Of a stretch of DNA of 64,000 nt, positions 27,911-45,459 are shown piece by piece. The stretch comes from Candidatus Latescibacterota bacterium (GTDB lineage Bacteria > Latescibacterota > UBA2968 > GCA-2709665): assembly GCA_965219995.1 (NCBI GenBank), contig CBDCOX010000002.1, positions 2,944,001-3,008,000 on the forward strand, in the 5' to 3' direction. Within the stretch, counting starts at the first letter, position 1. The number at the start of each line of letters is the position of its first letter. A model generated the notes under the pieces. That model made no database searches. It saw only the letters and a program-made list of their open reading frames with translations, and was not told the DNA's origin. The translations under genes were made by a program, and so were the position numbers.

Positions 27911-27959
27911 CGGCAACCGTGGATGACGCGATTCCTCAGCAGTCACATTTCGGCGACCT

Positions 27960-28523
27960 ATGATCCTCGTAATCGACAATTACGACTCGTTCACGTACAA
28001 TCTGGTTCAGTACCTGGGTGAGTTGGGCGCGCGGATGGAAGTATTCCGGAACGACCGGATTGCAATGGACCGGATTGACGCGTCCCAACCCGAGAAGGTG
28101 GTGATTTCACCGGGTCCATGTACGCCGAACGAAGCCGGAATCTCCGTGGGCCTGATCCGGCGTTTTACCGGGCGGATTCCGATGCTGGGGGTCTGTCTCG
28201 GACATCAGTGCATCGGGCAGGCCTTCGGAGGCAGGGTCGTTCGGGCTCCCGCGATTCTTCACGGCAAGGTGTCCGAGATCCATCACGACGGTCGCTCGAT
28301 TTTCAAGGGGTTGTCGCAGCCCTTCATTGCGACGCGATACCATTCGCTGATTGTCGAGCGGGAGAGCCTGCCGGACTGCCTCGAGATATCCGCACAGACA
28401 CACGACGGTATCATCATGGGACTGCGGCACAGGGAGTACCCGGTCGAGGGCGTGCAGTTTCATCCGGAGTCGATTCTAACGGCCGAAGGCAAAGTGTTGT
28501 TGAAAAATTTCCTGGATGGCTGA
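27960..28523 (+). CDS. trpG: Anthranilate synthase component II (glutamine amidotransferase)
   Basis: [31 protein letters not shown]. Confidence 0.95.
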
Positions 28524-28583
28524 GTTGGCAGTCCGGGAATCGGAAGCCGGTTCCGGTCCCCGTTTGCGAGTTGGGAGACGGCG

Positions 28584-29597: not shown

Positions 29598-29690
29598 AGC
29601 CGGCACCGAACGTTTACGATATCCTCGCCTTCGAGTTACGCCATGGACGGGACTGGCACCTGTTGGCGCGCGGAAACGAAGAAGGGGAAG

Positions 29691-30482
29691 ATGGCTACGA
29701 TTCTGGATGAGATCATCGCATATAAACGCCGCGTCGTGTCCGAGGCGAAGAAGCGGGTATCCCCTGAGGCGTTGCGGAAGCAGGCAAACCTGGTTCGTCG
29801 GCCGGACTCTCTGATGGACAGCCTGACTGCCGGGGAGGATATCGCGCTGATCGCGGAGATTAAAAAGGCATCTCCGTCCAAAGGGGTAATCAGGGAGAGT
29901 TTCGATCCTGTTGAAATCGGCCGATCTTACGAGAGAAACGGCGCGGCGGCCATTTCCGTGCTGACGGATGTAAAGTACTTCCGGGGCTCCGATGCCAGCC
30001 TGAGGGCGGTGAGCGAGGCCGTGGAATTGCCGGTGCTCCGGAAGGATTTCGTGGTTGATCCGTATCAGATCCACGAGGCCAGGACAATCGGCGCGTCCGC
30101 GGTTTTGCTCATTGTTTCAGCGCTTTCCCCGCGCGAATTGTCAGAGATGCTCACCGTTTGCAGGGAGTCGCAACTGGACGCGCTGGTGGAAGTGCACACT
30201 CCGGATGAAGCGAGGATGGCGCTGGATGCGGGCGCGGATCTCATGGGGGTGAATAACCGCGACCTGAAGACGTTTGCTACGGATTTGCAGACCACATTCG
30301 ATCTGCTTGAACACCTGCCGGACGATCTTGTCGTTGTGAGCGAGAGCGGCATCAGGACCAGAGACCAGGTCGTCCGGTTGAGGGATGCCGGCGTGGACGC
30401 GGTTCTGGTCGGAGAACATCTGATGCGCCAACCCGACGTGGGTCGGGAGCTTCGAGCGTTGCTGGGCATGGAAGGCGGCTGA
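29691..30482 (+). CDS. trpC: Indole-3-glycerol phosphate synthase
   Basis: IAEIKKASPSKG, LRKDF, GVNNRDL, SESGI. Confidence 0.97.
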   Translation: MATILDEIIAYKRRVVSEAKKRVSPEALRKQANLVRRPDSLMDSLTAGEDIALIAEIKKASPSKGVIRESFDPVEIGRSYERNGAAAISVLTDVKYFRGSDASLRAVSEAVELPVLRKDFVVDPYQIHEARTIGASAVLLIVSALSPRELSEMLTVCRESQLDALVEVHTPDEARMALDAGADLMGVNNRDLKTFATDLQTTFDLLEHLPDDLVVVSESGIRTRDQVVRLRDAGVDAVLVGEHLMRQPDVGRELRALLGMEGG

Positions 30483-30490
30483 TTCAACCT

Positions 30491-31153
30491 ATGGTTCGGG
30501 TGAAGATCTGCGGAATCACGAATCGGGAGGACGCGCTCTTTGCGGTCGCGCAGGGTGTGGACGCCCTGGGGTTCATCTTCTACGAGCGCAGCCCGCGTTA
30601 CGTGCATCCGGAACGCGTCGGCAGGATCGTGTCGGCGTTGCCGCCTTTCGTGACGCCTGTCGGGGTTTTCGTGAACACGGCCAGGGAGGAGATCCTGGCA
30701 ATAGCACGGATGACAGGGCTGCGGGCGGTCCAACTGCACGGCGACGAGACACCCGCCGAATGTCTGGGATATCCGATTCCGGTCATCCGGGCATTGCGGG
30801 TTGGCGACGGTTTCGACCCCGCTTCTCTGAGCGACTTTCCGGTCGACACGTTTCTGCTGGATACGGCCAAAAAGGGATGGTACGGCGGTACCGGAGAGAC
30901 GTTTGACTGGCGGGTCGCACGGGCGGCCGCGGCACACGGGCGGATCATTCTCTCGGGAGGAATCGATCCGTCGAACGTGGCGGACGCGGCGCGGACGGTG
31001 AATCCGTACGCGGTGGACTGCGGCAGCGGCGTCGAGGCCGCGCCGGGACGGAAGGACCACGACAGAATCGCGGAATTCTTCGAAGCGCTTCGCTCGGCAA
31101 CCCGCGACAACCGGCATTCCCGAACCCATCGTTCGAATTCATCCGGAGCCTGA
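30491..31153 (+). CDS. trpF: Phosphoribosylanthranilate isomerase
   Basis: VKICGIT, VQLHGDE, GGTGETFDW, SGVE. Confidence 0.96.
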   Translation: MVRVKICGITNREDALFAVAQGVDALGFIFYERSPRYVHPERVGRIVSALPPFVTPVGVFVNTAREEILAIARMTGLRAVQLHGDETPAECLGYPIPVIRALRVGDGFDPASLSDFPVDTFLLDTAKKGWYGGTGETFDWRVARAAAAHGRIILSGGIDPSNVADAARTVNPYAVDCGSGVEAAPGRKDHDRIAEFFEALRSATRDNRHSRTHRSNSSGA

Positions 31154-31157
31154 ACCC

Positions 31158-32420
31158 GTGGACATCATGAAAGATCTGGAGTTTCGGGGATACGTCTTTC
31201 AGGTAACGGACCCCGGCGGCCTTAAATCGCGACTCGACCTGGGGCCGATGACGCTGTATTCGGGGTTCGACCCCACGGCAGACAGCCTGCACGTCGGCAA
31301 CCTGATCCCAATACTGGGACTGCGGCGGTTTCAATTGGCCGGGCATCATGCAATCGGGCTTATCGGGGGCGGCACGGGTTTGATTGGCGACCCGAGCGGC
31401 AGCCAGGAAGAACGCCCGTTGAACCCGCCCGAGCTGATCGCGGAATATACAGGGAAGCTCACGGAGCAACTGGCCAGATTCCTGGATTTCGAAACGGGGA
31501 CCAATCCCGCCCGCGTGGTCAGCAATCTGGGCTGGCTTTCCGAACTGAAGGCGATCGACTTCCTGAGAGACACGGGCAAGCACTTCTCCGTGGGTTATAT
31601 GCTGGCGAAAGAGTCCGTGGCTTCGCGGCTGGAGTCCGGAATTTCCTTCACGGAGTTCAGCTATATGGTCATTCAGGCCTATGACTTCATGGAGCTGTTT
31701 CGGACGCACGGGTGTGAACTCCAGATCGGCGGAAGCGATCAATGGGGAAATATAACAGCGGGAATCGAGTTGATCCGACGGCGGCTGGGCGGACAGGCCC
31801 ACGGCCTGACGTTTCCGCTGCTGCAGAAAGCCGACGGCACCAAGTTCGGTAAGACCGCCTCGGGGACGGTCTGGCTGGACGCGGAAAAGACGTCACCGTA
31901 CCAGCTGTACCAGCACATGATAAATACCGACGACCGGGACGTGGTGACGTTTCTCAAGCTGTTTACCTTTCTATCCGAGGATGAGATCGGGAACCTGGAG
32001 CTGGAGGTGTCACAACACCCTGAGAAGCGGGAATCGCAACGCGTGCTGGCCGAGGAGGTCACCACTCTGGTTCACGACAGCGCCGCCACCGGGCGCGCGC
32101 ACAGGATTTCCGAGGCGTTGTTCTACGGTGATCTGCGCGATCTGAGTGCGAGAGAGATCGAGGAAGGGTTCAGCGACGTGCCGTCTCACGCGCTCAACGG
32201 CGTGGTGGAAGCAGGTCTGGTCAAACTTCTGGTGGATGCGGGCATTTCATCTTCGATGCGCCAGGCCCGCGAAGACGTCAGGTCCGGCGCCGTATATCTC
32301 AATGGACTGCGCTGCACCGATGTGGGCCGGACCCTCGCCCCTGACGACAGGCTCGCAGGCGGATACCTTATCGTACGACGTGGCAAACGCCGCTACTTTC
32401 TCGTACGCTGGAACCTTTGA
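31158..32420 (+). CDS. tyrS: Tyrosyl-tRNA synthetase
   Basis: GFDPTADSLHVGN, QIGGSDQWGNI, KFGKT, C-terminal S4 domain (RRGKR). Confidence 0.97.
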   Translation: MDIMKDLEFRGYVFQVTDPGGLKSRLDLGPMTLYSGFDPTADSLHVGNLIPILGLRRFQLAGHHAIGLIGGGTGLIGDPSGSQEERPLNPPELIAEYTGKLTEQLARFLDFETGTNPARVVSNLGWLSELKAIDFLRDTGKHFSVGYMLAKESVASRLESGISFTEFSYMVIQAYDFMELFRTHGCELQIGGSDQWGNITAGIELIRRRLGGQAHGLTFPLLQKADGTKFGKTASGTVWLDAEKTSPYQLYQHMINTDDRDVVTFLKLFTFLSEDEIGNLELEVSQHPEKRESQRVLAEEVTTLVHDSAATGRAHRISEALFYGDLRDLSAREIEEGFSDVPSHALNGVVEAGLVKLLVDAGISSSMRQAREDVRSGAVYLNGLRCTDVGRTLAPDDRLAGGYLIVRRGKRRYFLVRWNL

Positions 32421-32516
32421 CGGGCGGTTTCGGGACCGCTCTTGTATATGGGTATAGTAATCAGGTTCAGGATATTCGGAACCCGGCAGGAAAAACAAAA
32501 AGAGAGGATTCTTTCG

Positions 32517-33494
32517 ATGAAAGCACCGTGGATAACCTATCGGCCGGAACTGAAAGTACTCGATTGTACGATTCGTGACGGCGGATTGATGAACGACCAC
32601 CAGTTCTCCGATGATTTCGTGAGGGCGGTTTATGAAACCTGCGTCGACGCGGGTGTCGACTATATGGAAATCGGTTACCGGAACTCCAAGGAGATGTTTC
32701 CCAAAGACCAGTTCGGGGCTTTCCGACACAGCGACGAAGAAGATATCCGGAAGATTACAGGCGACCACGACCCGGAAACAACCGGCCTGAAGCTCGCCGT
32801 TATGGCGGACGCGGGCAAGAGTGACTGGGCGGAAGACATCCTGCCGGCAAGCGACAGCGTCGTCAGTATGGTACGGGTCGCCTGTTACGTGGAGCAGATT
32901 CCCGAGACCGTCGAAATGCTCTGCGACGCCCACGAAAAGGGATATGAGACCAGTTGCAATATTATGGCCGTCTCCACCGTGCAGGAGGTGGAGGTCGATC
33001 AGGCGCTGGAAGTCCTGATCGAGACGCCCGTCGGTACGATCTGCGTCGTTGACAGTTTTGGCGCATTGTACCGGGAGCAGGTGGATATGCTCATCCGGAA
33101 GTATATGGATGCCGTAAGCGGGACGGGGAAGGAAGTGGGTATTCACGCGCACAACAACCAGCAACTTGCATTTGCCAATACCATTGAAGCGCTCATACTC
33201 GGCGCAAACCGCGTGGATGCCACGGTGGACGGTCTTGGAAGGGGCGCGGGGAATTGCCCCCTGGAGCTGCTGCTGGGTTTCCTCCGCAATCCCAAATTCA
33301 AGATCCGGCCCGTCTACAAACTGCTGGAGGACCATTTTGTCAAATTGCGCGAAGAACTGACGTGGGGGCCTCTCGTTCCTTACAATATCACGGGGCAGCA
33401 CAATCAGCATCCACGCTCGGCAATGGCGCTGCTGGACGGGAAAGACCGCGATCGCTATCTGGCATTCTACGATCAGGTGATGAGGGACATCTGA
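32517..33494 (+). CDS. DRE-TIM (HMGL-like) metallo-aldolase, 4-hydroxy-2-oxovalerate-aldolase-like, substrate unknown
   Basis: LDCTIRDGG, GIHAHNNQQLA, GLGRGAGNCPLE. Confidence 0.85.
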   Translation: MKAPWITYRPELKVLDCTIRDGGLMNDHQFSDDFVRAVYETCVDAGVDYMEIGYRNSKEMFPKDQFGAFRHSDEEDIRKITGDHDPETTGLKLAVMADAGKSDWAEDILPASDSVVSMVRVACYVEQIPETVEMLCDAHEKGYETSCNIMAVSTVQEVEVDQALEVLIETPVGTICVVDSFGALYREQVDMLIRKYMDAVSGTGKEVGIHAHNNQQLAFANTIEALILGANRVDATVDGLGRGAGNCPLELLLGFLRNPKFKIRPVYKLLEDHFVKLREELTWGPLVPYNITGQHNQHPRSAMALLDGKDRDRYLAFYDQVMRDI

Positions 33495-33592
33495 TCGGGT
33501 GGCCCCTGCGCCGGCAGCTGGAAAACGGACTGACGCCCGCCCCGGCGAGGGTTTGAACCCACGCTGGGACCCCATCTCTACAGGATAGAAAA

Positions 33593-34804
33593 ATGGCACT
33601 TCCGAGAGCAGATGAACCATCCGGCACATTGCCCGACTCCGGGGGGCATTTCGGTCCCTACGGCGGGCGATACGTGCCGGAGACGCTGATGCCGTTGCTG
33701 GAGGACCTGGAGGCGGCGTACCGGGATAGCAGGGACCGTCCGGATTTCGTGAGTGAGCTGAACGGGTATCTCAGGGAGTTTGTAGGAAGGCCGACGCCGC
33801 TCTACTTCGCGAAGCGCCTGACCGCGGAACTGGGCGGCGCCCGAATCTATCTGAAACGGGAGGACCTCGCGCACACCGGCGCGCACAAGATCAACAACAC
33901 GATGGGGCAGATACTGCTTGCCAGACGGATGGGCAAGACGCGGATCATCGCGGAAACCGGCGCGGGCCAGCACGGCGTGGCAACAGCAACCGTGGCTGCG
34001 ATGTTCGGAATGGACTGCGAGATTTACATGGGCACGGAAGACATGGAGCGGCAGGCGCTGAATGTGTTTCGGATGCGGCTCCTCGGCGCAAGGGTGACGG
34101 GAGTGGATTCGGGCAGCAGGACCCTGAAGGATGCGATTAACGAAGCCATCCGCGATTGGGTGACGAACGTGGACGATACGTTCTACATTTTCGGATCCGT
34201 CCTGGGACCTCATCCGTATCCGATGATCGTTCGTGATTTTCAGCGCGTCATCGGAGTGGAGGCTCGAGAGCAGATCCTGCGGGCCGAGGGCCGGCTGCCG
34301 GAATGTCTTATCGCGTGCGTCGGCGGCGGCAGCAATTCCATCGGTCTGTTTCACGCATTTCTCGAGGACGCGGACGTACGGATGATCGGTGTCGAAGCGG
34401 GCGGGCATGGAATTGCCTCGGGCGATCACGCGGCGCGCTTTCAGGCTGGGGATCTGGGCGTGCTGCACGGGGCCAGGATATACCTCCTGCAGGACGAGGA
34501 CGGGCAGATCGCGCTGACCCATTCCGTTTCCGCCGGTCTGGACTATTCCGGAGTCGGTCCTGAACACTGCCATCTGCGAGACGCGGGACGGATCGAATAC
34601 GCGTACGCAACCGACGACGAGGCACTGAAGGCCTTTCAGCTGCTGAGCCGTACGGAGGGGATCATCCCCGCCCTGGAAAGCGCGCATGCGATCGCGTACG
34701 TGACAAGAGCCGCGCCTGAAATGGGCAGGGATGCCGTTGTCGTCGCGAATCTTTCAGGGAGGGGCGACAAAGACGTGCAGCAGGCGGCGAAGTTCCTCGA
34801 CTGA
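33593..34804 (+). CDS. trpB: Tryptophan synthase beta chain
   Basis: [40 protein letters not shown]. Confidence 0.98.
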
Positions 34805-34857
34805 GTGGAATCGTACCGCTCGTTCCAGGGCTGGAATCGACACACGGGATTGTTCGG

Positions 34858-35670
34858 ATGACAAGAATCGGAAAGCGGTTCGCATGGTTGAAGAAGACGC
34901 GAAGGACCGGATTCGTCGCATATATCACCGCGGGAGATCCGGACCTGGCAACCACCCGTAAACTGGCGCCGGAGCTTGAACGGCGCGGGGTGGACATTCT
35001 CGAGCTGGGTGTGCCTTTCTCCGATCCGCTCGCGGACGGACCGGAGATCCAGCGGGCGTCACAGCGGGCCCTGCGGCATCGGGTGTCGATCGGCGACGTG
35101 CTGGATCTGGTGTCGGACCTGCGGCGCGAGACGGAAATACCCATTGTGCTCTTTACGTATTTCAATCCTATGCATCGGTTCGGTCTTGAACGGCTCGTCG
35201 ACAGGGCGGCCGAAGCGGGGGTAGACGGCATTCTTGCGCTGGATCTTCCGCCCGAAGAAGCGGCCGAGTACAAGCGTCTGATGGGTAAACGGGGATTGGA
35301 CACGGTTTTTCTGATCGCGCCGACGAGCCGCGAGGATCGCATCCGTCGGATCGCTTCATCTACCAGCGGCTTTGTGTATTACGTGTCGCGCACGGGCGTT
35401 ACGGGGGAGCGGGACAGCCTGGAGGAGACACTCGGCGCAAGGGTGGCGACCATCAGACGACATACCTCGCTGCCGGTTGCGGTGGGATTCGGTATTTCAA
35501 CCCCCGAACAGTCCAGGGAGGTTGCGGGATACGCGGATGCCGTGGTCGTCGGCAGCGCAATCGTCCGACGAATCGCCGAGCGGCAGACGGACCCGGACCT
35601 CGTTCCCCACATCGGGGCATTCGTGGAAGAACTGGTGCAACCCCTGAAGGGAGCATCCAATGGACCTTGA
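34858..35670 (+). CDS. trpA: Tryptophan synthase alpha chain
   Basis: ELGVPFSDPLADGPEIQ, SRTGVTG, VGFGIS. Confidence 0.98.
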   Translation: MTRIGKRFAWLKKTRRTGFVAYITAGDPDLATTRKLAPELERRGVDILELGVPFSDPLADGPEIQRASQRALRHRVSIGDVLDLVSDLRRETEIPIVLFTYFNPMHRFGLERLVDRAAEAGVDGILALDLPPEEAAEYKRLMGKRGLDTVFLIAPTSREDRIRRIASSTSGFVYYVSRTGVTGERDSLEETLGARVATIRRHTSLPVAVGFGISTPEQSREVAGYADAVVVGSAIVRRIAERQTDPDLVPHIGAFVEELVQPLKGASNGP

Positions 35671-35953
35671 AGACTGGCGGAAGGAAATCGACGCCCTGGA
35701 TCGACAGCTCCTGGCGCTACTGAAACGACGCGCCGAATGTGCGCTTCAAATCGGCATGATCAAACAGACGATCGAACAGCCGATCTACGCGCCGGAACGC
35801 GAGACATCGATCCTCAACCGAATTCGCGAACTGAACGCCGGACCCCTGACCGACGAAGCGGTGCAACGAATATTTCAGCAGATTATCGATGAGTCCAGGC
35901 GGCTCGAACAGGAGCACGGCGAACGGCAGTCCGGAGACGTGAAACATCCCTGA
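35660..35953 (+). CDS. Monofunctional chorismate mutase (AroQ class)
   Basis: LEDWRKEIDALDRQLLALLKRR...ERE...IIDESR. Confidence 0.92.
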   Translation: MDLEDWRKEIDALDRQLLALLKRRAECALQIGMIKQTIEQPIYAPERETSILNRIRELNAGPLTDEAVQRIFQQIIDESRRLEQEHGERQSGDVKHP

Positions 35954-35967
35954 TTCATCAATGGAGC

Positions 35968-37005
35968 ATGCAGCGCATGGCGTTTACGAAAAACATGAAG
36001 ATTCCCACACCGGAAGCCGTGCTGGAGGAAATGCCGCTTCCGAAGAAACTGAAGGACGTAAAGGAGCAGCGGGATGCGGAGATCAGGGACATCTTCGCGC
36101 GCAGGAGCCGTAAATTTCTGCTGGTGATCGGCCCCTGTTCAGCGCACGATGAAGATGCAGTGTGCGAATACGTTTCCAGGCTGGCGAAACTGCAGGAGGC
36201 CGTCCGTGAAACGCTGGTTCTGGTGCCTCGCATCTATACCAACAAACCCCGCACGACCGGCGAGGGGTACAAGGGCATGGGGCATCAGCCGGACCCCCGA
36301 AAGGCGCCGGACCTGTCCGAAGGCATCTACGCGGTTCGTCAGATGCACATCCGCGCAGCCGAGGAGTCCCACCTGACGGCGGCCGACGAAATGCTGTATC
36401 CGGGCAATCTGCCTTATGTCGAGGACTTGCTGAGCTATATAGCCGTGGGTGCGCGGTCGGTGGAAAACCAACAGCACCGATTGACCTGCAGCGGCGTCGA
36501 CGTGCCCGTTGGAATGAAGAACCCGACGGCGGGCGATCTGTCTGTGATGTTGAATGCGATTCAGGCCTCTCAGATCCCACACGTCTTCATCTATAACGGA
36601 TGGGAAGTCAGCACCAGCGGCAATTCCCTGACACACGCCGTGCTTCGCGGCGCCGTGGACGTTAACGGGCGCAGTATGCCGAACTATCATTTCGAAGACC
36701 TGATGTACGCGGCGGCACTCTATGGTCAACGGCAGCTTGCCAACCCCACGATCGTCGTGGATACGAATCACAACAATTCCGGCAAGCAGTTCAGTGAACA
36801 ACCCAGGATCGGATTGGATGTGATCCGCAGCCGACGGAATTCAACAATACTGTGCGAAATGATCCGCGGGTTGATGGTTGAGAGCTATCTGGAAGAAGGC
36901 TCCCAGAACGTCAATGAAGGCGTGTTCGGCAGATCCATTACCGATCCGTGCCTGGGGTGGGAAGATACCGAGGCGTTCGTTAAGGAACTGGCGGAGGGGA
37001 TATGA
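35968..37005 (+). CDS. DAHP synthase, type I-alpha
   Basis: VIGPCSA, KPRTTGEGYKG, VGARS, VGMKNPT, SITDPCLGW. Confidence 0.95.
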   Translation: MQRMAFTKNMKIPTPEAVLEEMPLPKKLKDVKEQRDAEIRDIFARRSRKFLLVIGPCSAHDEDAVCEYVSRLAKLQEAVRETLVLVPRIYTNKPRTTGEGYKGMGHQPDPRKAPDLSEGIYAVRQMHIRAAEESHLTAADEMLYPGNLPYVEDLLSYIAVGARSVENQQHRLTCSGVDVPVGMKNPTAGDLSVMLNAIQASQIPHVFIYNGWEVSTSGNSLTHAVLRGAVDVNGRSMPNYHFEDLMYAAALYGQRQLANPTIVVDTNHNNSGKQFSEQPRIGLDVIRSRRNSTILCEMIRGLMVESYLEEGSQNVNEGVFGRSITDPCLGWEDTEAFVKELAEGI

Positions 37006-37083
37006 TAGCGAACGGGATCGGAAGACAGGAACGGAGCCGGACGTTCCGCAGGCGCCCCGGCCGCCGTTTCCGGGGATAACCGC

Positions 37084-38196
37084 ATGGCCAACGATCCTCC
37101 GTTTGCACGTGAGACCATTGCGATTGTGGGTGTCGGGCTGATTGGCGGTTCTCTTGGCGTGGGGTTCAAGAGTCTGGGCATCGGACGACGCATCGTCGGC
37201 ATCGGCAGGCGTGAGACGCTGGATGCGGCACGCAATCTGAACGTCATCGACGCGGGCTATCCTTACGAGGAACTCGCCGCCGGTATTCGCGAAGCGGCGC
37301 TCGTTTTCCTGTGCACCCCCATTGTACGTATTCTCGACCTGCTGCCGGAGGTGCTGGCGGCGGCGCGCCAGAATGCGGTCGTGACCGACGTTGGCAGCAC
37401 CAAGCACGCGGTTGTTTCCGCCGCGGCGGCCCATCGACGGGGCGGCGTGCATTTCGTGGGCGGGCACCCGATGGCGGGTTCCGAGCACCGCGGGGTTGGC
37501 GCGGCGGATCCGTTCCTGTTTCAGAATGCGATCTACGTACTGACACCCTCGCCGGACACGCCCGATTTCGTGGTCGATAAGCTCTCACGCCTCGTCAGGA
37601 CGCTCGGGGCGAGACCGATGAGGATGACGCCACGGGAACACGACCGGGCGGCGGCGGCGGTAAGTCACCTGCCGCAGATGATGGCCACAAGCCTCGTATC
37701 CATGATCGGACGGATGACCGAAGCCGAAGGGCTGCCGATCCGGATGGCGGCGGGCGGGTTTCGGGATCTCACGCGCATTGCTTCCAGCCCGTATGAGATG
37801 TGGCGGGATATCTGCCGAACAAACGCGTCCCAGATCCGTGAGATGATCGATCGGTATATCGAGTCGCTGGCGGCGCTTCGCGGGGCCGTGGACGGAGAAC
37901 GGCTGGAGCAGTCGTTTGCCTTTGCGAACCGGGTACGCGGTCAGATCCCGAAGGACTCCAAGGGGTTCTTGCATCCGCTGCACGAAATACTCCTGGTGGC
38001 GGAAGACAGGCCCGGCGTGATCGCCGACGTCGCCCGGACGCTGGCCGCGGCGAGAATCAACATCAACGACATCGAGGTGTTGAACGTCCGTGAGGGAGAA
38101 GGGGGCACCATCCGGATGGGTTTCGATTCGCGTCCATGCGCGGAACGGGCCGTGGACTTGCTGGGGAAGGCGGGATACAGCGTCAGATTGAGGTAA
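37084..38196 (+). CDS. tyrA: Prephenate/arogenate dehydrogenase with C-terminal ACT domain
   Basis: GVGLIGGS, TDVGSTK, GGHPMAGSE, SHLP, GFRDLTRIA, ACT motif EDRPGVIA. Confidence 0.94.
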   Translation: MANDPPFARETIAIVGVGLIGGSLGVGFKSLGIGRRIVGIGRRETLDAARNLNVIDAGYPYEELAAGIREAALVFLCTPIVRILDLLPEVLAAARQNAVVTDVGSTKHAVVSAAAAHRRGGVHFVGGHPMAGSEHRGVGAADPFLFQNAIYVLTPSPDTPDFVVDKLSRLVRTLGARPMRMTPREHDRAAAAVSHLPQMMATSLVSMIGRMTEAEGLPIRMAAGGFRDLTRIASSPYEMWRDICRTNASQIREMIDRYIESLAALRGAVDGERLEQSFAFANRVRGQIPKDSKGFLHPLHEILLVAEDRPGVIADVARTLAAARININDIEVLNVREGEGGTIRMGFDSRPCAERAVDLLGKAGYSVRLR

Positions 38197-38277
38197 ATGG
38201 ATGCATCCGGAACGGGAGACGATCGAGCGGAATCCATGTCCGTCCTGTAATGAATCCATTTTGAAAGTGGGGCGGTT

Positions 38278-39585
38278 TTGGAATTCACGGCCTTATTGAT
38301 TGCCGAAGGCGCGATCACGCCTTCATCCGGGCTGGTGGGGACGTGCGACCTCCCCGGCGATGCCGACGTGTCGATCATGGCCCTGGCGCTATCGTCCAAG
38401 GCCGATGGCGTCTCCCGGATTCACCGGTGTTCGCGAAAACCCGACGTCGAGCGTGCTGCGGGATTGCTGACGGCGCTTGGGATTTCGGTTGCGTGGGACG
38501 CCGAGACCGCGACGGTGACCGGCGGCCGCGTCCGGGCGCCCGCCGACGTACTGCATGTGGGTGGGTCCCTGGTTCTGTTCTCCTGTCTGGCGGGATTGCT
38601 GTCAAATGCGCCGTTTGTCACCAGACTGTCCGGGGCTTCGGCGGACGCCGGCGTCGACCGGTTATTCGAGGCGCTCCGCAGCCTGGGCGCCACCCCGGAG
38701 ATATCCCACGAGGACGGGATATCGGCGAGTGTCGGATTGGACAGGTTAACACCCGGATCCTACCGCGCGGGGCTTCCCGAACCGGCGGTGAAGTGCGGCA
38801 TGTTGATGGCCGGTGTAGGTGTGGACGGAATCGTCGAACTGGTGCAGGACAGCGGCGGAGATGACGATCTGGAAGTGTTGCTGCAAGCAGCGGGATGCGG
38901 TCTGAAAAAGGGGCGGATAAAGGGCGCCAGAGGTCGTCGGCTGACGTTGGAAGGCCCCGCACGGCTCCGCGGCGTGACTCACGTGTTGCCGGGCGGTTCG
39001 GATGCAGCGCTTGTTCTTTCGCTCGCGGCGGCGATGTTGAGCCGCTCCGAATTGACGGTAACTCATTTCGGACTGGATTCGAAGAGCCGCAGCATCGTGG
39101 ACCTGCTGCGCCGAATGAACGTGTCAATGGATATGGAGCAAACCCGGACTGAGTCCGGCTTTCCCGTACGACGCGTCCGGATCTGGTCGTCGGACTTGCG
39201 TGGCATAAAGATCGCCGGCGCGGCTGCCGGGCGCCTTTTGGACGAGCTCCCCATCCTGGCGGCCGCGGGCGCGGTTTCCAGGGGCGAAACGATCATTCGG
39301 AATGCCGAGGCATTGAGGGACGGCGAGGTAGACTGCATTTCAGTACTGGTGGAAAACCTGAGAAAGATGCAGGTTCAGGTCGGGGAGATGCCGGACGGAC
39401 TGGTTGTAAAGGGCGGTCAACCGCAGGGCGCCGAACTGGATGCCGCCGGCGACGCCCGCGTGACATTGGCGCTCACACTGGCTGCGCTTGCGAGCGAAGG
39501 GGAGACCCGTCTGAAGAACCCCGGCCCGGTGGACCGGATGTATCCCGGGATCATGGATAGATTGGCTTCGGTTTTGGACCGATAG
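38278..39585 (+). CDS. EPSP synthase (AroA)-fold protein with degenerate active site
   Basis: Full length and collinear with AroA (LPGD, VKCGMLMAG, LDELPILA, GETIIRNAEALR, PDGLVVKGG, MYPG), but most substrate-binding residues are replaced. Confidence 0.85.
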   Translation: MEFTALLIAEGAITPSSGLVGTCDLPGDADVSIMALALSSKADGVSRIHRCSRKPDVERAAGLLTALGISVAWDAETATVTGGRVRAPADVLHVGGSLVLFSCLAGLLSNAPFVTRLSGASADAGVDRLFEALRSLGATPEISHEDGISASVGLDRLTPGSYRAGLPEPAVKCGMLMAGVGVDGIVELVQDSGGDDDLEVLLQAAGCGLKKGRIKGARGRRLTLEGPARLRGVTHVLPGGSDAALVLSLAAAMLSRSELTVTHFGLDSKSRSIVDLLRRMNVSMDMEQTRTESGFPVRRVRIWSSDLRGIKIAGAAAGRLLDELPILAAAGAVSRGETIIRNAEALRDGEVDCISVLVENLRKMQVQVGEMPDGLVVKGGQPQGAELDAAGDARVTLALTLAALASEGETRLKNPGPVDRMYPGIMDRLASVLDR

Positions 39586-39669
39586 GCCGCGCAGGTCGTT
39601 CAAATGCCCGCCATGGATCGTCGCGGCACGATACGGTGTGGGTTAATCATCTGTACGAGGAGACTCCTT

Positions 39670-39810
39670 ATGAGACTGGTTGTCAGGTTGTTCCTCTTGG
39701 CGTTGCTCGTGTTTATGGGTGGTGTTGTTTTCATTCGGTACACCTACAAATGTTCCTGGAAAGAGAGTTTCGCAATTGCCGACCAGTTTGTGTCTGACCT
39801 GACCAGTTGA
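39670..39810 (+). CDS. Small single-TM membrane protein (46 aa)
   Basis: RBS GAGGAG; MRLVVRLFLLALLVFMGGVVFIRYTYKCSWKESFAIADQFVSDLTS. Confidence 0.65.
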   Translation: MRLVVRLFLLALLVFMGGVVFIRYTYKCSWKESFAIADQFVSDLTS

Positions 39811-39876
39811 ACGAGTGTCAGGACTTCGGCTGGCGGGACGCAGCCACAATAGAGTCCAAGTTTTGCGGGGCCCGTT

Positions 39877-40743
39877 TTGGGTATTGTCTCAACCACGCGG
39901 CTGCTGGGAGTGATTGGCGACCCGATTGCCCATTCGCTATCGCCGGACATGCACAATGCGGCCATCAGCGCTCTCGAAATGGACTACTGTTACGTGGCAT
40001 TCCACGTTTTGCCGGACGGGGTTGAACCGGCGCTCCGGGGAATGCGTGCATTGCAGATCCGGGGATTGAACGTAACCCTTCCCCACAAGACCGCGGTGAT
40101 TGGGCACCTCGATCAGACTTCGGAAGAAGCACTGGCCGTAGGTGCGGTGAATACGATCTCTTTCGAGGAGGGCGATCTCGTCGGCCACAATACCGATGTG
40201 TACGGGCTGGCCACCGCGCTGGAGCGGACGGCGGGCCTCGCGGTATTGCCGGAGCACTGCGTGATTCTCGGCGCGGGCGGCGTCGCGAGGGCCGCCGTTT
40301 ACGCGCTGGCAACGAATGACGACGTGCGCCGCGTGAGCATACTCAATCGGACCGTTGCCCGGGCGGAAGCGCTTGCGCATGACATGGAAAGGATCACGGG
40401 TAAGACGATAGACGCAGGCGACCTGACGGCAGACACCCAGTTGAGCGTGTTCGCGGATGCCGGCCTGGTTGTAAACGGGACGTCGCTGGGGATGGTTCCG
40501 GACGTGGAGCGGACGCCGCTGGCCGACACCTCTGCGATTCACTCTGAACTCGTTCTGTACGATACGGTTTTCAACCCGCTCGATACGCTGCTGATGCGGC
40601 AGTTCCGGTCCGCGGGCGCGCCGGCGTTTGGAGGACTTGACATGCTCGTGCACCAGGGTGCGCGTTCGTTTGCCATCTGGACGGGTGTCGAACCGCCCGT
40701 CGACGTCATGAAACAGGCGATTATCGGACGGTTTCGGGCATAG
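39877..40743 (+). CDS. aroE: Shikimate dehydrogenase
   Basis: HSLSPDMHN, NVTLPHK, GAVNT, GHNTD, GAGG, GLDMLVHQG. Confidence 0.96.
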   Translation: MGIVSTTRLLGVIGDPIAHSLSPDMHNAAISALEMDYCYVAFHVLPDGVEPALRGMRALQIRGLNVTLPHKTAVIGHLDQTSEEALAVGAVNTISFEEGDLVGHNTDVYGLATALERTAGLAVLPEHCVILGAGGVARAAVYALATNDDVRRVSILNRTVARAEALAHDMERITGKTIDAGDLTADTQLSVFADAGLVVNGTSLGMVPDVERTPLADTSAIHSELVLYDTVFNPLDTLLMRQFRSAGAPAFGGLDMLVHQGARSFAIWTGVEPPVDVMKQAIIGRFRA

Positions 40744-40745
40744 CG

Positions 40746-41471
40746 GTGGCGAGTTCCCATCTTCAGGAACGCAATGCCAGGCGGACATTCGTGCGTCAGA
40801 TGTTCGACGGCATCGCCGGCACGTACGATCTGCTGAACCACCTGTTGAGCGCCGGCGTGGATATTCTCTGGCGGCGATGGACCATCGACGCCCTCGAATT
40901 GAAAGCCGGCTGGTGGATCCTGGACCTTGCAACCGGAACGGGCGATCTGGGTCTCGAAGCGGCTGCCCGCGATTCGGGGGTGCGGGTTGTGGGTGCGGAC
41001 CTTTCCCGGCCGATGCTGCGGCTGGGAACCAGGAAAAAGGAGAAAAGACCCGGCCAGCTCTTTTTTCTGTGTGGAGACGCGGAGCGGCTTCCGTTCCCCG
41101 ATGCGCGGTTTCAGGCCCTGACCATTGGTTTCGGGGTACGGAACTTTTCGGACCTGGCGACTGGATTGCGGGAAATGCACCGGGTCCTCCGCCCCGGCGG
41201 CCGGCTGGCAATTCTGGAATTCTCCCGGCCCAGAGCGTTTCTTCTGCGCAGGGTCTACTTCTTTTATTTCAAATGCATCCTGCCCGGGATCGGCCGGCTT
41301 GTATCCCGGAATCCCCGGGCATATCGGTACCTTTACGAATCTGTAATGGGTTTTCCTGAAGGGGACGCATTCCTGAGACGTCTGGCGCGGGCCGGTTTTG
41401 TGGAACCTGAGGAACGCCGGTTCTCCTTTGGCATCGCCACACTCTACATGGCAAGGAAGAATGAAGAATGA
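40746..41471 (+). CDS. menG: Demethylmenaquinone methyltransferase (MenG/UbiE)
   Basis: MFDGIAGTYDLLNHLLSAG, LDLATGTGD, FGVRN, RVLRPGG, YLYES. Confidence 0.9.
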   Translation: MASSHLQERNARRTFVRQMFDGIAGTYDLLNHLLSAGVDILWRRWTIDALELKAGWWILDLATGTGDLGLEAAARDSGVRVVGADLSRPMLRLGTRKKEKRPGQLFFLCGDAERLPFPDARFQALTIGFGVRNFSDLATGLREMHRVLRPGGRLAILEFSRPRAFLLRRVYFFYFKCILPGIGRLVSRNPRAYRYLYESVMGFPEGDAFLRRLARAGFVEPEERRFSFGIATLYMARKNEE

Positions 41472-41483
41472 AGAAGGAGGAAT
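41456..41483. repeat. 7-mer tandem repeat (GAAGAAT-like, 4 copies)
   Basis: gaagaat gaagaat gaagaag gaggaat spanning the menG stop codon. Confidence 0.6.
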
Positions 41484-41884
41484 GGTTGGGTCCTCCTGAG
41501 GTTTATCCATAAGTATTCTGAAAGGTGACCTGCCGGCGGACGAACATCTGACAGCCAATCGCTGTCCTCGTCATTCAGACGCCAATCGGTCTACAATAGT
41601 ATTTCCTGATCGGAGGTCTCCCAGAGCAGAGCGCGCTGATCAGTCCAGCAACGCGGATTGTTGTTCTTCCGAGGATGTCAGGGCAGAGGATCCTGTGCAT
41701 CCTGTGAGGGGATTCGCGCGGTGCATATGGCAGGCCCCGCGCCCAGCGGCGACTATTCTAGATGCGGTAAGAGGGTAGCCGTGAGACGGTAGAGGATAGC
41801 GTTACCACAGTGTTTTCACGCTAACCGTGCCTGTTTCCCTACCGTTATCGTAACAACAAGAAATACGACAAGGCACTGAAACCA

Positions 41885-41912
41885 TCTCCCGTCTCCCGTC
41901 TTACGTCTCCCC
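41885..41912. repeat. 7-mer tandem repeat (TCTCCCG-like, 4 copies)
   Basis: tctcccg tctcccg tcttacg tctcccc. Confidence 0.7.
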
Positions 41913-41977
41913 GCCTTTAGGGAATTTGGGGAGATGTGGACATTGAATTTGAACTTGATCTTCGTCTCTTGCTTCAA

Positions 41978-42009
41978 GCTGACTGCTGATTGCTGACCGC
42001 TGATAGCTG
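41978..42009. repeat. 7-mer tandem repeat (GCTGAYN, 4.5 copies)
   Basis: gctgact gctgatt gctgacc gctgata gctg. Confidence 0.75.
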
Positions 42010-42040
42010 TTTCCGCTGCCGCGAGAAGAGGTACTCCTGA

Positions 42041-43741
42041 ATGGACAATCCGTTCATTGATGAAATCGTATCGCAGGTCTCAAGAGCGACTGACACGCGT
42101 CCCGATGAGGTGAGGCCGCTGATCGAAGTCCCTCCCAAACCCGAGATGGGGGATTACGCGCTGCCGTGTTTCGGCCTTGCAAGAACGCTTCGGAAGGCGC
42201 CGAATCAGATCGCGAGGGACCTTGAGGCGCGAGTGCGCACGAGCGCGCGCATTGCCCGGGTGAGCGCCATGGGCCCGTATCTCAATATCTTCCTGAGCCA
42301 GACCGAATTCGTCCGGGAAACGCTTTCGCAGATTCTCGCTGCGGGCAGGCAATACGGACACAGCAGCGAGGGCGCCGGGAAGACGGTCGTGATCGATTTC
42401 TCGTCACCGAATATCTCCAAGCCGTTCACGATCGCCCACATCCGTTCGACGGCGATCGGGAATTCGCTCTGCAGGATCTACGGGTCGCTCGGCTGGAACG
42501 TGATCGGCATCAATCACCTCGGCGACTGGGGGGCCCCGCACGGGATGAATATCGCGGCGTACAAGCGCTGGGGAGATGCGAACGCGGTCCGCAGGAATCC
42601 TCCCTTCGAGCTGTTCAATCTGTACGTGAAGTTCAATGCCGAGTTGGAAAGGGATCCGTCTCTCGGTGACGACGTCAAGCTCTGGACCAGGAAACTGGAG
42701 GCCGGCGATGCCGAGGCGCTGCGGCTGTGGAAATGGTTCCGGGAAGAGACCATAAGCGATTTCAAGCGAATTTACGAATTGCTGGACGTGACATTTACCG
42801 AATACACGGGTGAAAGTTTCTTTCATGACAAGGTGGGGCCGGTTGTCGACGAATTGAAGGGAAAAGGGCTTGCCGTCGAGAGCGAAGGCGCCCTCGTTGT
42901 CATGCTGGACGACGACATGCCGCCGGCCATCATCCAGACGGGGCACGATACCAGCGTCTATCTCACGCGGGACCTGGCCGCTGCGATTTACCGTAAAGAG
43001 ACCTACGACTTCGATAAGTTGATTTATGCGACCGACGCCGGGCAGTCCCTGCATTTCCGGCAGCTTTTCAAGGTGCTGGAACGGATGGGCTATGAATGGG
43101 CGAAAGACTGCGTTCACGTCCCGTTCGGCATTATCTCCTTTAAAGAGGGCAGGATGTCGAGCCGAAAGGGCAACGTGATTTTCCTGGAGGACGTGCTGAA
43201 CCGCGCTGTTGAGTTGACACGGGAAATCGTTGAGAACAAGAATCCGGATCTTCCGGACAAAGACGCGATCGCCCGGGACGTGGGCATCGGTGCGGTGGTC
43301 TACGCCGACCTGGATTCGCGCCGGACGCGGGACGTGGTATTCGACTGGGATGAGATCCTGAATTTCAATGGCGAGACCGGCCCCTACGTTCAATATACCC
43401 ATGCCCGCTATTGCAGTGTGCTGCGCAGGTACGGCGGCGCGGCGGCTCCGGCCGGGGCGGACCTTTCTCTGTTGACCGAAACCGAGGCCGTGGCCGTGGT
43501 CAAGTGCCTGGAGCGGTTTCCGCAGCGTATCCGGAACGCGGCCGAGGCCTGTGAACCGTCTCTGATTGCCGGGTACCTGATCGAACTCTGTGCAGAGGCG
43601 AACCGGTTTTACAACGCCCACCGGGTCATCTCAGAAGACGCGACCCTGACACGGGCGCGTATCGCCCTCGTTTATTCGATCACCGCCGTGCTGGCAGCCG
43701 GACTCCATCTGCTGGGCCTGAAGGCGCCGGAGGAAATGTGA
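42041..43741 (+). CDS. argS: Arginyl-tRNA synthetase
   Basis: GDYALPCF, IDFSSPNISKP, NHLGDWG, YLTRDLAAA, MSSRKG, GPYVQYTHAR. Confidence 0.96.
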   Translation: MDNPFIDEIVSQVSRATDTRPDEVRPLIEVPPKPEMGDYALPCFGLARTLRKAPNQIARDLEARVRTSARIARVSAMGPYLNIFLSQTEFVRETLSQILAAGRQYGHSSEGAGKTVVIDFSSPNISKPFTIAHIRSTAIGNSLCRIYGSLGWNVIGINHLGDWGAPHGMNIAAYKRWGDANAVRRNPPFELFNLYVKFNAELERDPSLGDDVKLWTRKLEAGDAEALRLWKWFREETISDFKRIYELLDVTFTEYTGESFFHDKVGPVVDELKGKGLAVESEGALVVMLDDDMPPAIIQTGHDTSVYLTRDLAAAIYRKETYDFDKLIYATDAGQSLHFRQLFKVLERMGYEWAKDCVHVPFGIISFKEGRMSSRKGNVIFLEDVLNRAVELTREIVENKNPDLPDKDAIARDVGIGAVVYADLDSRRTRDVVFDWDEILNFNGETGPYVQYTHARYCSVLRRYGGAAAPAGADLSLLTETEAVAVVKCLERFPQRIRNAAEACEPSLIAGYLIELCAEANRFYNAHRVISEDATLTRARIALVYSITAVLAAGLHLLGLKAPEEM

Positions 43742-44301
43742 GTCAGACCGCGCATGGTTCTCTGCTGCGGGGCAGGCAGATCTTCCTGACCGGTTTCATG
43801 GCGACCGGAAAGAGCAAGGTCGGCCCGATTCTGGCGCGGCGCCTGGATCGGCGATTCGTGGATACGGATGAGTTGATCGTGGAGACGGCCGGGAAGTCGA
43901 TCCCCCGGATCTTTGCGGAAGACGGAGAAGCCGCATTCCGTCGTATCGAACGCGGATGCGTGGCGCGTGCGGCCGGGATGCCCGATGCTGTCATCGCTCT
44001 GGGTGGCGGCGCCGTTACGCAGGAGGGCAACTGGGATACGATTCGCGCATCCGGAATCTGCCTGTGTCTGCGGGCATCGGCGGAGACCGTTTTCAAGCGC
44101 CTGCGAAGGACAGAGGGAGAACGGCCGCTGATGGCCGGTTTGACCGATGAAGGCCGGATGGCGAAGATCCGGTCGATGCTGGCGGCCCGGGCGCCGTTTT
44201 ACGACCGTGCGGACGCATTCGTGGAGTCGACGGAGTATCGCGCGCCGGAAGAGACGGTTCAACTGGCGGTGTCGGCATTGGAAGGCCTGCAATCGCGATA
44301 G
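43738..44301 (+). CDS. aroK: Shikimate kinase
   Basis: GFMATGKS P-loop, DTD, GEAAFR, GGG, RPL. Confidence 0.96.
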   Translation: MSQTAHGSLLRGRQIFLTGFMATGKSKVGPILARRLDRRFVDTDELIVETAGKSIPRIFAEDGEAAFRRIERGCVARAAGMPDAVIALGGGAVTQEGNWDTIRASGICLCLRASAETVFKRLRRTEGERPLMAGLTDEGRMAKIRSMLAARAPFYDRADAFVESTEYRAPEETVQLAVSALEGLQSR

Positions 44302-44349
44302 GGTGCTGGAAGGCCGCTGCTTATGGAATCTGAAGGCGAACTGAGCGGA

Positions 44350-45459
44350 ATGGAGACCGTACAGGTCGATCTCGGCAGTCGGAGTTATCCGATCCTGATT
44401 GGACACGGGACACTGTCCGATTTCGGCAGGTCGTACGCGGCGAAGGGGCTCGGGTCGGCCGCGGCGGTCGTGACCAACCATACCGTGGCGCCGCTCTACC
44501 TGGATCCGGTGAGGGCCGGTCTCGAGGCTCAGGGTGTGGCGGTAACGGTGGTTGAGGTCCCCGATGGAGAAGAATACAAGACACTGGGGACGGCCGGCCG
44601 GATATACGGCGAATTGATACAGGCGGGCCTGGACCGGCGCAGTTGCATCGTCACCCTTGGGGGCGGCGTCGTGGGCGACACGGCCGGATTCGTGGCGGCC
44701 ACGTATCTGCGCGGCATCGATTTCGTGCAGGTGCCCACCACCCTCGAGGCGCAGGTCGACGCCAGCGTGGGCGGAAAGACCGGGGTCGACCATCCGCTCG
44801 GCAAGAATATGATCGGAGCGTTCCATCAGCCGAAGCTGGTTTATATCGACACGGAAACGCTGATGACCCTGCCCCGGCGGGAGGTGGTTGCCGGGATGGC
44901 GGAGGTGATCAAGCACGGATTGATCCGTGATGGAGACCTCGTGCGATTCCTGGAGCGCGAGATCGAAAGCGTGGCGGACCTGGCGGTTGAACCGGAAAAG
45001 CTGGTGGGTCTGATCGCTCGAAATTGCCGAATCAAAGCGGACGTCGTGGCGGCGGACGAGACCGAAGCGGGATTGAGGGAGATTCTGAACTACGGCCACA
45101 CCGTTGGACACGCCATTGAGGCGGTGACGAATTACACGGATTACAAACACGGCGAGGCCGTTATGCTGGGCATGCTGGCCGCCGGCAGAATCGGCGTCAT
45201 CAAGGGGTTCTGGAAACCGTCGGAGCTGGAACGGCAGAACGCGCTGATCGAACGACTCGGGATCCCGTCCGGCGCCCGCGCACTTGAAGCGGACGAACTG
45301 ATCGGACGTATGGCGAGCGACAAGAAAGCGCGGGATGGGGTGATCCGGTTTGTGCTGCCGGAGGCGATCGGCCATGCCACGTCGTGCGACACCGTGACGC
45401 GGGAAGAGATCGGAGAGGGTATCCGGTATATGCAGAAACGCTCACCCGAATCGGCATGA
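44350..45459 (+). CDS. aroB: 3-dehydroquinate synthase
   Basis: PDGEEYK, GGGVVGD, PTTL..QVDASVGGKT, KNMIGAFHQP, LNYGHTVGHAIE. Confidence 0.97.
   Translation: METVQVDLGSRSYPILIGHGTLSDFGRSYAAKGLGSAAAVVTNHTVAPLYLDPVRAGLEAQGVAVTVVEVPDGEEYKTLGTAGRIYGELIQAGLDRRSCIVTLGGGVVGDTAGFVAATYLRGIDFVQVPTTLEAQVDASVGGKTGVDHPLGKNMIGAFHQPKLVYIDTETLMTLPRREVVAGMAEVIKHGLIRDGDLVRFLEREIESVADLAVEPEKLVGLIARNCRIKADVVAADETEAGLREILNYGHTVGHAIEAVTNYTDYKHGEAVMLGMLAAGRIGVIKGFWKPSELERQNALIERLGIPSGARALEADELIGRMASDKKARDGVIRFVLPEAIGHATSCDTVTREEIGEGIRYMQKRSPESA

Follow-up and report, generated by a model that had tools for sequence, protein, structure and literature searches.

Introduction

5-Enolpyruvylshikimate-3-phosphate (EPSP) synthase (EPSPS), the product of aroA, is the target of glyphosate and counts as a universal enzyme with a single function. 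In surveys, every PF00275 protein is sorted by predicted glyphosate sensitivity. Synthesis of EPSP needs both lobes of the EPSPS fold together with the very residues whose loss is described below, and a single lobe cannot form an active site. Dead paralogues of enzymes can serve biosynthetic pathways, as does HisZ, a catalytically dead paralogue of HisRS that regulates ATP-phosphoribosyltransferase. This article concerns aroAx, a gene for an EPSP-synthase-fold protein (38278..39585, + strand) in a 64,000-nucleotide stretch of Candidatus Latescibacterota DNA (contig CBDCOX010000002.1; hereafter the window). Its 435-amino acid (aa) product, read from a TTG start, is devoid of nearly all the residues that bind shikimate 3-phosphate (S3P) or phosphoenolpyruvate (PEP).

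In its accessible part, an EPSPS classification preprint leaves sequences that do not conform, of which there are many, "unclassified"; the words non-functional, pseudogene and paralog are absent from that part of the text, where loss of function is not considered (10.1101/2020.05.27.118265). A protein of this fold is known to act by binding, as the accessible part of another report describes: the MurA of Pseudomonas aeruginosa binds and activates LpxC (PMC9995270). Among openly searchable papers, nothing relevant to a dead EPSPS was found in the literature on shikimate and aromatic amino acid biosynthesis in Latescibacteria, nor was anything relevant found on catalytically inactive EPSPS paralogs. 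Likewise, no literature pairing EPSP synthase or enolpyruvyl transferase with pseudoenzyme was found in a search that left subscription journals outside its reach. What is new here is that many Latescibacterota conserve a dead EPSPS in their aroA slot, along with natural single-lobe derivatives of it. The explanation moderately favoured below is that aroAx encodes a dead, well-folded EPSPS derivative whose function lies in the C-terminal lobe and is probably one of binding or scaffolding in the aromatic pathway, with EPSP supplied by another gene.

An EPSP synthase fold below the family cut-off

The aroAx open reading frame (ORF) has no internal stop and starts 82 nt past the stop codon of tyrA (37084..38196, +), which encodes a prephenate dehydrogenase with a C-terminal ACT domain (Pfam PDH_N, PDH_C and ACT). 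The Pfam model EPSP_synthase (PF00275) matches residues 14-429 over profile positions 2-417 of 417, with 157 bits. An AlphaFold 2 (AF2) model of the protein is confident (predicted local distance difference test, pLDDT, 92.6; predicted template modelling score, pTM, 0.91), and its top Foldseek matches are all EPSPS at template modelling (TM) scores of 0.74-0.81 (3roi_B, 0.80; 5buf, 0.79; 3tr1 and 3rmt, 0.74-0.75), with MurA ranking lower. Pfam span, model and Foldseek thus agree on a full-length, two-lobed enolpyruvyl-transferase fold. A "permanently closed" conformation was considered and dropped; beside the values for 3roi_B and 5buf, TM scores were 0.69-0.75 for ligand-bound structures (1g6s, 2gg6, 1rf4) and 0.53-0.54 for fully open plant structures. 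The shape and electrostatics of the aroAx cleft are what we infer from the sequence.

Membership in a named enzyme family is a different matter. Against TIGR01356, the NCBIfam equivalog model for aroA, the protein scores 144 bits, below the cut-off of 287.25, and MurA models give 50-53 bits (TIGR01072, 50.2 against 392.7). The top-scoring NCBIfam model is the AroA half of the bifunctional TyrA-AroA family NF011381/PRK14806, at 178.7 bits against a cut-off of 902; tyrA and aroAx are separate ORFs, the one ending at 38196 and the other starting at 38278. One protein of the aroAx clade is named "hypothetical protein" by NCBI. By position, however, aroAx does behave like an EPSPS gene, occupying the tyrA-aroE slot of an aromatic/shikimate gene cluster in 28 loci. 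Clear homology with residue loss, and purifying selection across species, are two features that it shares with pseudoenzymes.

The initial annotation of this DNA had described a full-length ORF of 435 aa, without frameshift, directly after tyrA, and had proposed aligning it to the EPSP synthase family and modelling its structure. The ORF and domain scans bear out the description, the profile alignment returns a full-length match with a sub-equivalog score, and AF2 and Foldseek give a confident EPSPS fold.

Loss of the ligand-binding residues

Motif changes were read from a HMMER alignment to solved EPSPS structures (3rmt, E 8e-45; 1rf4; others) and again from a MAFFT alignment with 34 canonical relatives. 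Residues are labelled as in the E. coli enzyme (K22 and so on), with numbers that we take to be those of the EPSPS structural literature. Both alignments reproduce every motif change that had been listed initially: PGDKSISHR is replaced by PGDADVSIM, GNSGTTxR by GGSLVLFS, the arginine of the RP motif by alanine, ASAQVK by PEPAVK, RDHTE by DDDLE, RVKESDR by RDGEVDC, and DHR by DAR. When 15 EPSPS residues are scored (K22, S23, R27, N94, G96, R100, R124, S169, Q171, D313, K340, E341, R344, H385 and R386), aroAx keeps the equivalents of D313, E341 and R386 only (its D322, E350 and R394).

The losses recur in 33/33 members of the aroAx clade, while the residues are kept by 33 canonical sequences of the same alignment, so that chance is not a sufficient explanation. 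This answers the earlier proposal to examine motif conservation among orthologues: the losses are common to the whole clade. Canonical residues are never found at K22 (0/30), R27 (0/32), N94, R100 and Q171 (each 0/33), H385 (0/32) or K340 (0/32, always G), and they are rare at G96 and R124 (each 1/33), R344 (3/32) and E341 (7/31). D313 is kept in 23/32, R386 in 31/32, and D343 and D384 in 32/32. The earlier statement that D313, E341 and R386 remain therefore holds for aroAx itself and fails for the clade, where E341 is mostly replaced and the D313 equivalent, a candidate general base, is D in 23 members, N in five, H in three and Q in one. In the clade, basic and polar ligand-binding residues have given way to hydrophobic ones (M/I at R27, V/I/L at T97, L at G96), to small ones (S/G/A at R100, A at Q171, A/V/P at H385) or to acidic ones (E/D at S23, D at S169, [DE][DE]D at RDH).

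Purifying selection and site conservation

A scan of one genome per GTDB species yielded 28 aroAx loci (L001-L028), 14 of them complete chromosomes. Complete chromosomes with the long form include OZ241917.1, OZ244744.1 and OZ250150.1, and those with a short form OZ251458.1, OY282377.1, OZ242010.1 and OZ240239.1. All are metagenome-assembled genomes (MAGs) of Candidatus Latescibacterota, a few being labelled Gemmatimonadota. In a protein search, relatives P0002-P0033 span 93% to 41% identity, after which identity drops to canonical AroA at ≤30%. The ESM Atlas places aroAx in what is apparently its own cluster of 117 members, with Latescibacterota as the commonest phylum and no functional lead.

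The ORF is intact in 22/22 complete long-form loci (430-467 aa), with no frameshift or stop. Ratios of nonsynonymous to synonymous substitution (dN/dS) were calculated pairwise by the Nei-Gojobori method, with ten pairs at dS < 1 for full-length aroAx. In these pairs, dN/dS is 0.23-0.32 for aroAx and 0.04-0.37 for nine neighbouring genes, most of which fall at 0.1-0.2. aroAx is thus under purifying selection, roughly twice as relaxed as most neighbouring genes. Few genes of the cluster are less conserved: its identity is, for example, 69-75% where that of most neighbours is 81-94%. Because its dS resembles that of the neighbours, there is no sign of constraint at the nucleotide level. The weak TTG start is shared by the window and its 13 closest loci, where it lies at locus position 10001 (L001-L012 and L014; 2778 in L003), and more distant lineages mostly show ATG as the first in-frame start. 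The initial annotation had held that the fold is under selection, a claim strengthened by the dN/dS values, the intact long forms and the confident AF2 model. It had also named dN/dS near 1 with frameshifts among orthologues as the sign of simple decay, and neither was observed.

Selection does not act on the old active site in particular. At the 17 former ligand positions, mean entropy is 1.58 bits against 1.29 for all positions, and 7% of random site sets are as variable. Exceptions are K340, replaced by an invariant G, S169, replaced by D in 25/33, and R386, which is retained. Because the former ligand positions are more variable than average, the old active site is relaxed rather than re-purposed as a conserved pocket, and its positions are no longer specially constrained. 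A site-by-site comparison of the clade with 52 canonical sequences found 48 positions conserved in both, mostly structural, 16 conserved in both with different residues, and 29 at which the canonical constraint is lost in the clade, five of these within an N-terminal extension found only in the clade. D267, R271, R308, G349 and Q383 are invariant residues peculiar to the clade.

One relative is represented by two adjacent pieces, P0070 and P0072 (197 and 130 aa), on the same 6413-bp metagenome contig; the split reflects a frameshift in that copy or else a fault in the assembly.

Two lobes and natural single-lobe forms

The two lobes of aroAx differ in their constraint. The N-lobe (residues ~29-237; 38362..38988, +), which short forms in other lineages have lost, is the more relaxed half and carries a conserved acidic motif, G[DE][DE]DLE, and PDxAVK. 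The C-lobe (residues ~238-435; 38989..39582, +), which folds with an N-terminal strand (residues ~12-28; 38311-38361), is the better conserved half and is kept in all lineages. Mean entropy is 1.48 bits in the N-lobe and 1.10 in the C-lobe. Across nine unsaturated long-form pairs, the N-lobe, computed on residues 1-225, has a dN/dS of 0.27-0.43. For the C-lobe, eight of these pairs give 0.19-0.26 and the least diverged one 0.43.

Short intact ORFs fill the aroAx slot at 5/28 loci (L024-L028). Three encode about 214-216 aa (L025, 9956-10606; L026, 9956-10600; L027, 9995-10645) and a fourth 227 aa (L028, 9953-10636). In these four, the N-terminal strand (GLVGECEVPGD...) is fused straight to residues ~238-435, and the lobe ~29-237 has been removed exactly (alignment A2). 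The fifth form (L024, 10010-10492) is shorter, at about 160 aa, and is equivalent to residues 277-435. In the short forms, the Pfam match to the EPSPS profile is limited to its C-terminal half. In a tree of concatenated neighbour genes, L024 is sister to the long-form locus L017 and stands apart from L025-L028; shortening of aroAx therefore happened at least twice independently.

The remaining lobe is still constrained. Among short forms dN/dS is 0.17-0.22, so constraint persists after the deletion; the value for L017/L024, 0.19, mixes the time before and after truncation. Modelled alone, a short form is predicted with high confidence (pLDDT 94.4, pTM 0.90) and overlays a single lobe of solved EPSPS (TMq 0.77-0.81, TMt ~0.41). 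When a C-lobe profile was run against 1.84 billion representatives, long and short forms ranked top, including the short form P0081 (215 aa). A protein search for shorter relatives returned 12 matches, mostly short-contig fragments, and did not recover the single-lobe forms. Since one lobe persists under constraint, the inter-lobe cleft cannot be what is preserved in the short-form lineages.

Origin of aroAx and the source of EPSP

Among canonical sequences, the nearest to the clade is P0083, which has 33% identity and 184 bits to aroAx, 12/12 catalytic residues and 395.8 bits on TIGR01356. It shares the motifs VGEMPDG, ENLRKM, AEGET and a DLLRRM-like string with the aroAx clade, and its relatives P0232 (80%), P0239 (65%) and P0244 (63%) are named as Latescibacterota or Latescibacteria 3-phosphoshikimate 1-carboxyvinyltransferase. 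These shared motifs and names point to the phylum's own AroA lineage as the source; judged by its sequence, aroAx is a descendant of a Latescibacterota-type, class-II-like EPSP synthase.

The initial annotation had allowed for a real AroA encoded elsewhere in the genome. Canonical AroA is present in other Latescibacterota MAGs. Within the whole 64-kb window, a tblastn search with four canonical AroA queries matched the aroAx ORF alone, and no murA was found in the window and locus sequence examined. None of the best 120 relatives of P0083 (down to about 50% identity), judged by the longest contig of each, lies on an aroAx chromosome, so canonical and dead types may alternate between genomes, as alternative occupants.

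The single-lobe genomes keep 3-deoxy-D-arabino-heptulosonate-7-phosphate (DAHP) synthase (DAHPS), aroB, aroE, aroK, tyrA and the trp genes well conserved, and EPSP must therefore come from another gene. Because single-lobe forms cannot make EPSP, the long forms, by extension, are not the EPSPS either. A non-canonical source is plausible in principle: as described in the accessible part of the report, the MurA of Marchantia makes EPSP from S3P and PEP (PMC11588093).

Function of the retained fold

The initial annotation had considered EPSP synthesis unlikely, and the clade-wide loss of ligand residues and the sub-cut-off score support it. It had left a new substrate and a regulatory or scaffold role side by side. 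A binding or scaffold role away from the cleft is now favoured over a new substrate, because the ligand positions are not newly conserved and single-lobe derivatives are under selection. In the favoured account, aroAx would still occupy the place behind tyrA that aroA had ancestrally in the aromatic supraoperon. Its preserved function would be neither EPSP synthesis, since that reaction requires both lobes and the residues now missing, nor anything that depends on the inter-lobe cleft. That function would reside in the lobe formed by the N-terminal strand and residues ~238-435, which would most likely serve as a protein-binding, structural or regulatory subunit for at least one co-expressed protein of the aromatic pathway, and EPSP would have to come from a gene that is not in the aromatic operon. 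That a non-catalytic aroAx binds a pathway protein is something that we infer.

Several observations weigh against this account. Only eight positions are newly constrained (≥90% in the clade, <40% in canonical sequences), and with so few newly constrained surface positions there is no clear new interface. In the 28 loci, the 10 kb to each side of aroAx contain no canonical aroA, and the best 120 relatives of P0083 include none on the 14 complete chromosomes or other aroAx contigs; that list ends at about 50% identity, and aroAx genomes may have a more distant aroA. Repeated loss of a lobe is also what progressive decay would look like. Finally, the long forms keep an acidic cluster near the old cleft (S169 to D in 25/33; G[DE][DE]DLE), where K172, E199, D352 and D392 are invariant and R394 nearly so, and this cluster, together with the invariant residues, could still bind something.

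The last point leads to the alternative that survives best, although it is unlikely: that the two-lobed long form has been neofunctionalised, its remodelled acidic and hydrophobic cleft binding a ligand that is neutral or cationic, be it a metal, amine or amino acid, either to sense it or to carry out a new reaction. Besides the acidic replacements conserved at phosphate sites and the invariant residues just named, it can draw on the 16 positions conserved in clade and canonical sequences alike with different residues, and on the N-lobe, which is still under purifying selection. It has to contend with former ligand positions whose average variability exceeds that of the remaining protein, with the varying candidate general base, and with single-lobe forms that persist without a cleft in the same slot under equal or stronger constraint.

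Quite unlikely is a slowly decaying relic, made redundant when another EPSPS took over and since lost piecemeal, with a constraint that reflects only the avoidance of misfolding or the expression of the operon. The low conservation of aroAx within its cluster, a dN/dS about twice that of most neighbours, the shortening at 5/28 loci in at least two independent events and the relative found in two pieces on one metagenome contig all fit such a course. Decay is harder to reconcile with dN/dS of 0.2-0.3, far from 1, over divergence down to 40% identity, or with 22 complete long forms free of frameshifts and stops. The deletions, moreover, are clean, in frame and at a domain boundary, and they leave a foldable lobe that evolves at 0.17-0.22 afterwards; with dS like that of the neighbours, nucleotide-level constraint does not account for this.

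A more far-reaching version of the non-catalytic account, and a long shot, is that Latescibacterota with aroAx have no canonical EPSPS at all. EPSP would then be made by another enzyme, for example a promiscuous MurA or an unrelated protein, and the dead lobe would be kept because that step, or a neighbouring enzyme of the operon, could not do without it as a non-catalytic subunit or regulator. If so, an EPSPS lobe standing alone would represent a novel type of module for binding proteins.

That aroAx is still the cell's EPSP synthase, with radically different binding residues, is hardly credible, even though its place is precisely the aroA slot in a pathway operon that is otherwise functional and no second aroA was found in the sequence examined: both phosphate sites and the PEP site are gone, their neutral, hydrophobic or acidic replacements would repel S3P and PEP and are not conserved within the clade, single-lobe genomes keep aroB, aroE, aroK, DAHPS and the trp genes with a lobe that cannot form an active site, and aroC, aroQ/aroD and pheA are also outside the operon, so that pathway genes elsewhere are to be expected.

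Operon context

Pfam and NCBIfam scans delimit an aromatic supraoperon at 26420..45459 (+). Its first part runs trpE-G-D-C-F, tyrS, an HMGL-like aldolase, trpB-A, an AroQ-type chorismate mutase and DAHP synthase, followed by tyrA, aroAx, a 46-aa small ORF, aroE (shikimate dehydrogenase by Pfam and NCBIfam; 39877..40743, +), ubiE, argS, aroK and aroB. Across the 28 loci, the order trp genes-chorismate mutase-DAHPS-tyrA-aroAx-aroE-ubiE-argS-aroK-aroB is maintained, with tyrA upstream of aroAx in 27/28 (the 28th ends at a contig edge) and aroE downstream in 28/28. This synteny holds in loci whose neighbour genes have diverged to 55-65% identity. Among the ORFs scanned, which exclude most of the first 22 kb, there is no aroC, aroD/aroQ or pheA. 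Rfam gave 0 matches over the whole window, and hence no known RNA element in the gaps around aroAx. A promoter and terminator scan of 35500-42200 gave counts close to shuffle expectation, with nothing that separates aroAx from its neighbours.

The small ORF between aroAx and aroE (39670..39810, +) is a possible operon partner of aroAx. Its product has a hydrophobic N-terminal helix followed by a FIRYTYxCSWKESFxIADQF tail. It lies directly 3' of aroAx in 28/28 loci, is 46 aa long in 25/28 and starts with ATG in 28/28, with a Shine-Dalgarno sequence of GAGG/GGAG type in 27/28 (L028 has only GAGGA, further upstream). In ten more divergent loci that were checked, it begins 1-7 nt from the aroAx stop. 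Its dN/dS is 0.00-0.28 in 12/13 pairs and 0.51 in one. The product matches no Pfam family, and the ESM Atlas places it in a hypothetical 46-aa cluster of 115 members (score 0.84), apparently its own, with no functional lead. A complex prediction of a short form (alignment A2) with the small ORF product (A3) scored 0.00; as it was run without controls, this speaks neither for nor against binding. A role as an attenuator leader peptide was considered and is unlikely, because the entire amino acid sequence, including the hydrophobic helix, is conserved.

Other features of the cluster were noted in passing. Two aminoacyl-tRNA synthetase genes, tyrS (31158-32420, +) and argS (42041-43741, +), as well as ubiE (40746-41471, +), are embedded in the supraoperon, and this embedding is conserved across the 28 loci. 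The HMGL-like/DmpG-like aldolase (32442-33494, +) lies inside the trp operon, in the tyrS-trpB interval; it scores below every NCBIfam cut-off, and its closest PDB match is a "putative aldolase" (3dxi). It is 90-96% identical in close loci, exceeding most neighbours, and is replaced by a larger uncharacterised insert in L015, L016 and L020-L022. In L028, an insert of about 1.3 kb (8668-9953), which a six-frame read shows to hold a long ORF, separates tyrA from the short aroAx. In L025 (10760-11130) and L027 (10810-11400), the small ORF and aroE lie further apart, across a gap that looks internally repetitive in a six-frame read, with recurring GETGDGRRE- and GQAPVPVRR-like strings.

Other degenerate EPSPS-fold proteins

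A wider survey covered 120 of the best 150 C-lobe-profile representatives and 15 proteins of the first search, at full length and scored on 12 catalytic residues; the sample is biased toward sequences resembling the C-lobe query profile. In 30 of the 120 full-length rows, six or fewer of the 12 residues are kept. These degenerate rows comprise 11 from the Latescibacterota clade, ten from a second clade (P0093, P0098, P0103, P0109 and others), a clade of four (P0108, P0121, P0183, P0184) and the singles P0082, P0085, P0087 and P0222. All but one of the 30 fall on one side of a well-supported branch, in a FastTree analysis alone in which long-branch attraction is possible. None of the degenerate proteins scores above the cut-off of any named NCBIfam family; their best match is the AroA half of PRK14806, except for P0093, which scores slightly higher on TIGR01356. 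Further degenerate EPSPS-like clades in metagenomes suggest a wider phenomenon.

With a dead EPSPS retained in the aroA slot over much of a phylum, three consequences follow. Automated reconstruction will wrongly call the shikimate pathway complete in such organisms, or call them glyphosate-insensitive. The EPSPS fold, even one lobe alone, can probably be kept for purposes other than catalysis. Where these uncultured bacteria really get their EPSP becomes a directly testable question.

Comparison with known systems

The nearest known system is the canonical class-II-like EPSPS (AroA, EC 2.5.1.19; 3rmt, 1rf4, 3tr1; P0083 and P0232), with which aroAx shares the full-length two-lobed fold, the position after tyrA and 48 structural positions. 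The Latescibacterota enzyme P0083 in particular shares the lineage motifs VGEMPDG, ENLRKM and AEGET. Unlike canonical EPSPS, the aroAx clade is without the S3P and PEP residues and includes single-lobe derivatives; aroAx itself scores below the cut-off and has 33% identity to its closest canonical sequence. The bifunctional TyrA-AroA family (NF011381/PRK14806) resembles aroAx in giving the best NCBIfam score and in the adjacency of tyrA and an aroA-like gene. In contrast to that family, the window has separate ORFs with an 82-nt gap, a TyrA with an ACT domain, a score of 178.7 against 902 bits and lost catalytic residues. The other degenerate EPSPS-fold proteins, seen in metagenomes, share R-x-G-x-x-D and VGE[MFYL]P[DE]G with aroAx and form clades separate from its own.

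Two further systems are comparable in mode of action. HisZ, like aroAx, is a dead homologue of a housekeeping enzyme kept in amino acid biosynthesis. The analogy is one of mechanism only, as HisZ has an unrelated fold and a known partner and role, whereas those of aroAx are proposed. The MurA of P. aeruginosa, unlike aroAx, is also a working enzyme, and its partner, LpxC, is known, whereas that of aroAx is hypothetical. As far as the accessible part of the report describes it, MurA nevertheless provides a working model for a non-catalytic role of aroAx, namely an enolpyruvyl-transferase fold that acts by binding directly to a pathway enzyme (PMC9995270).

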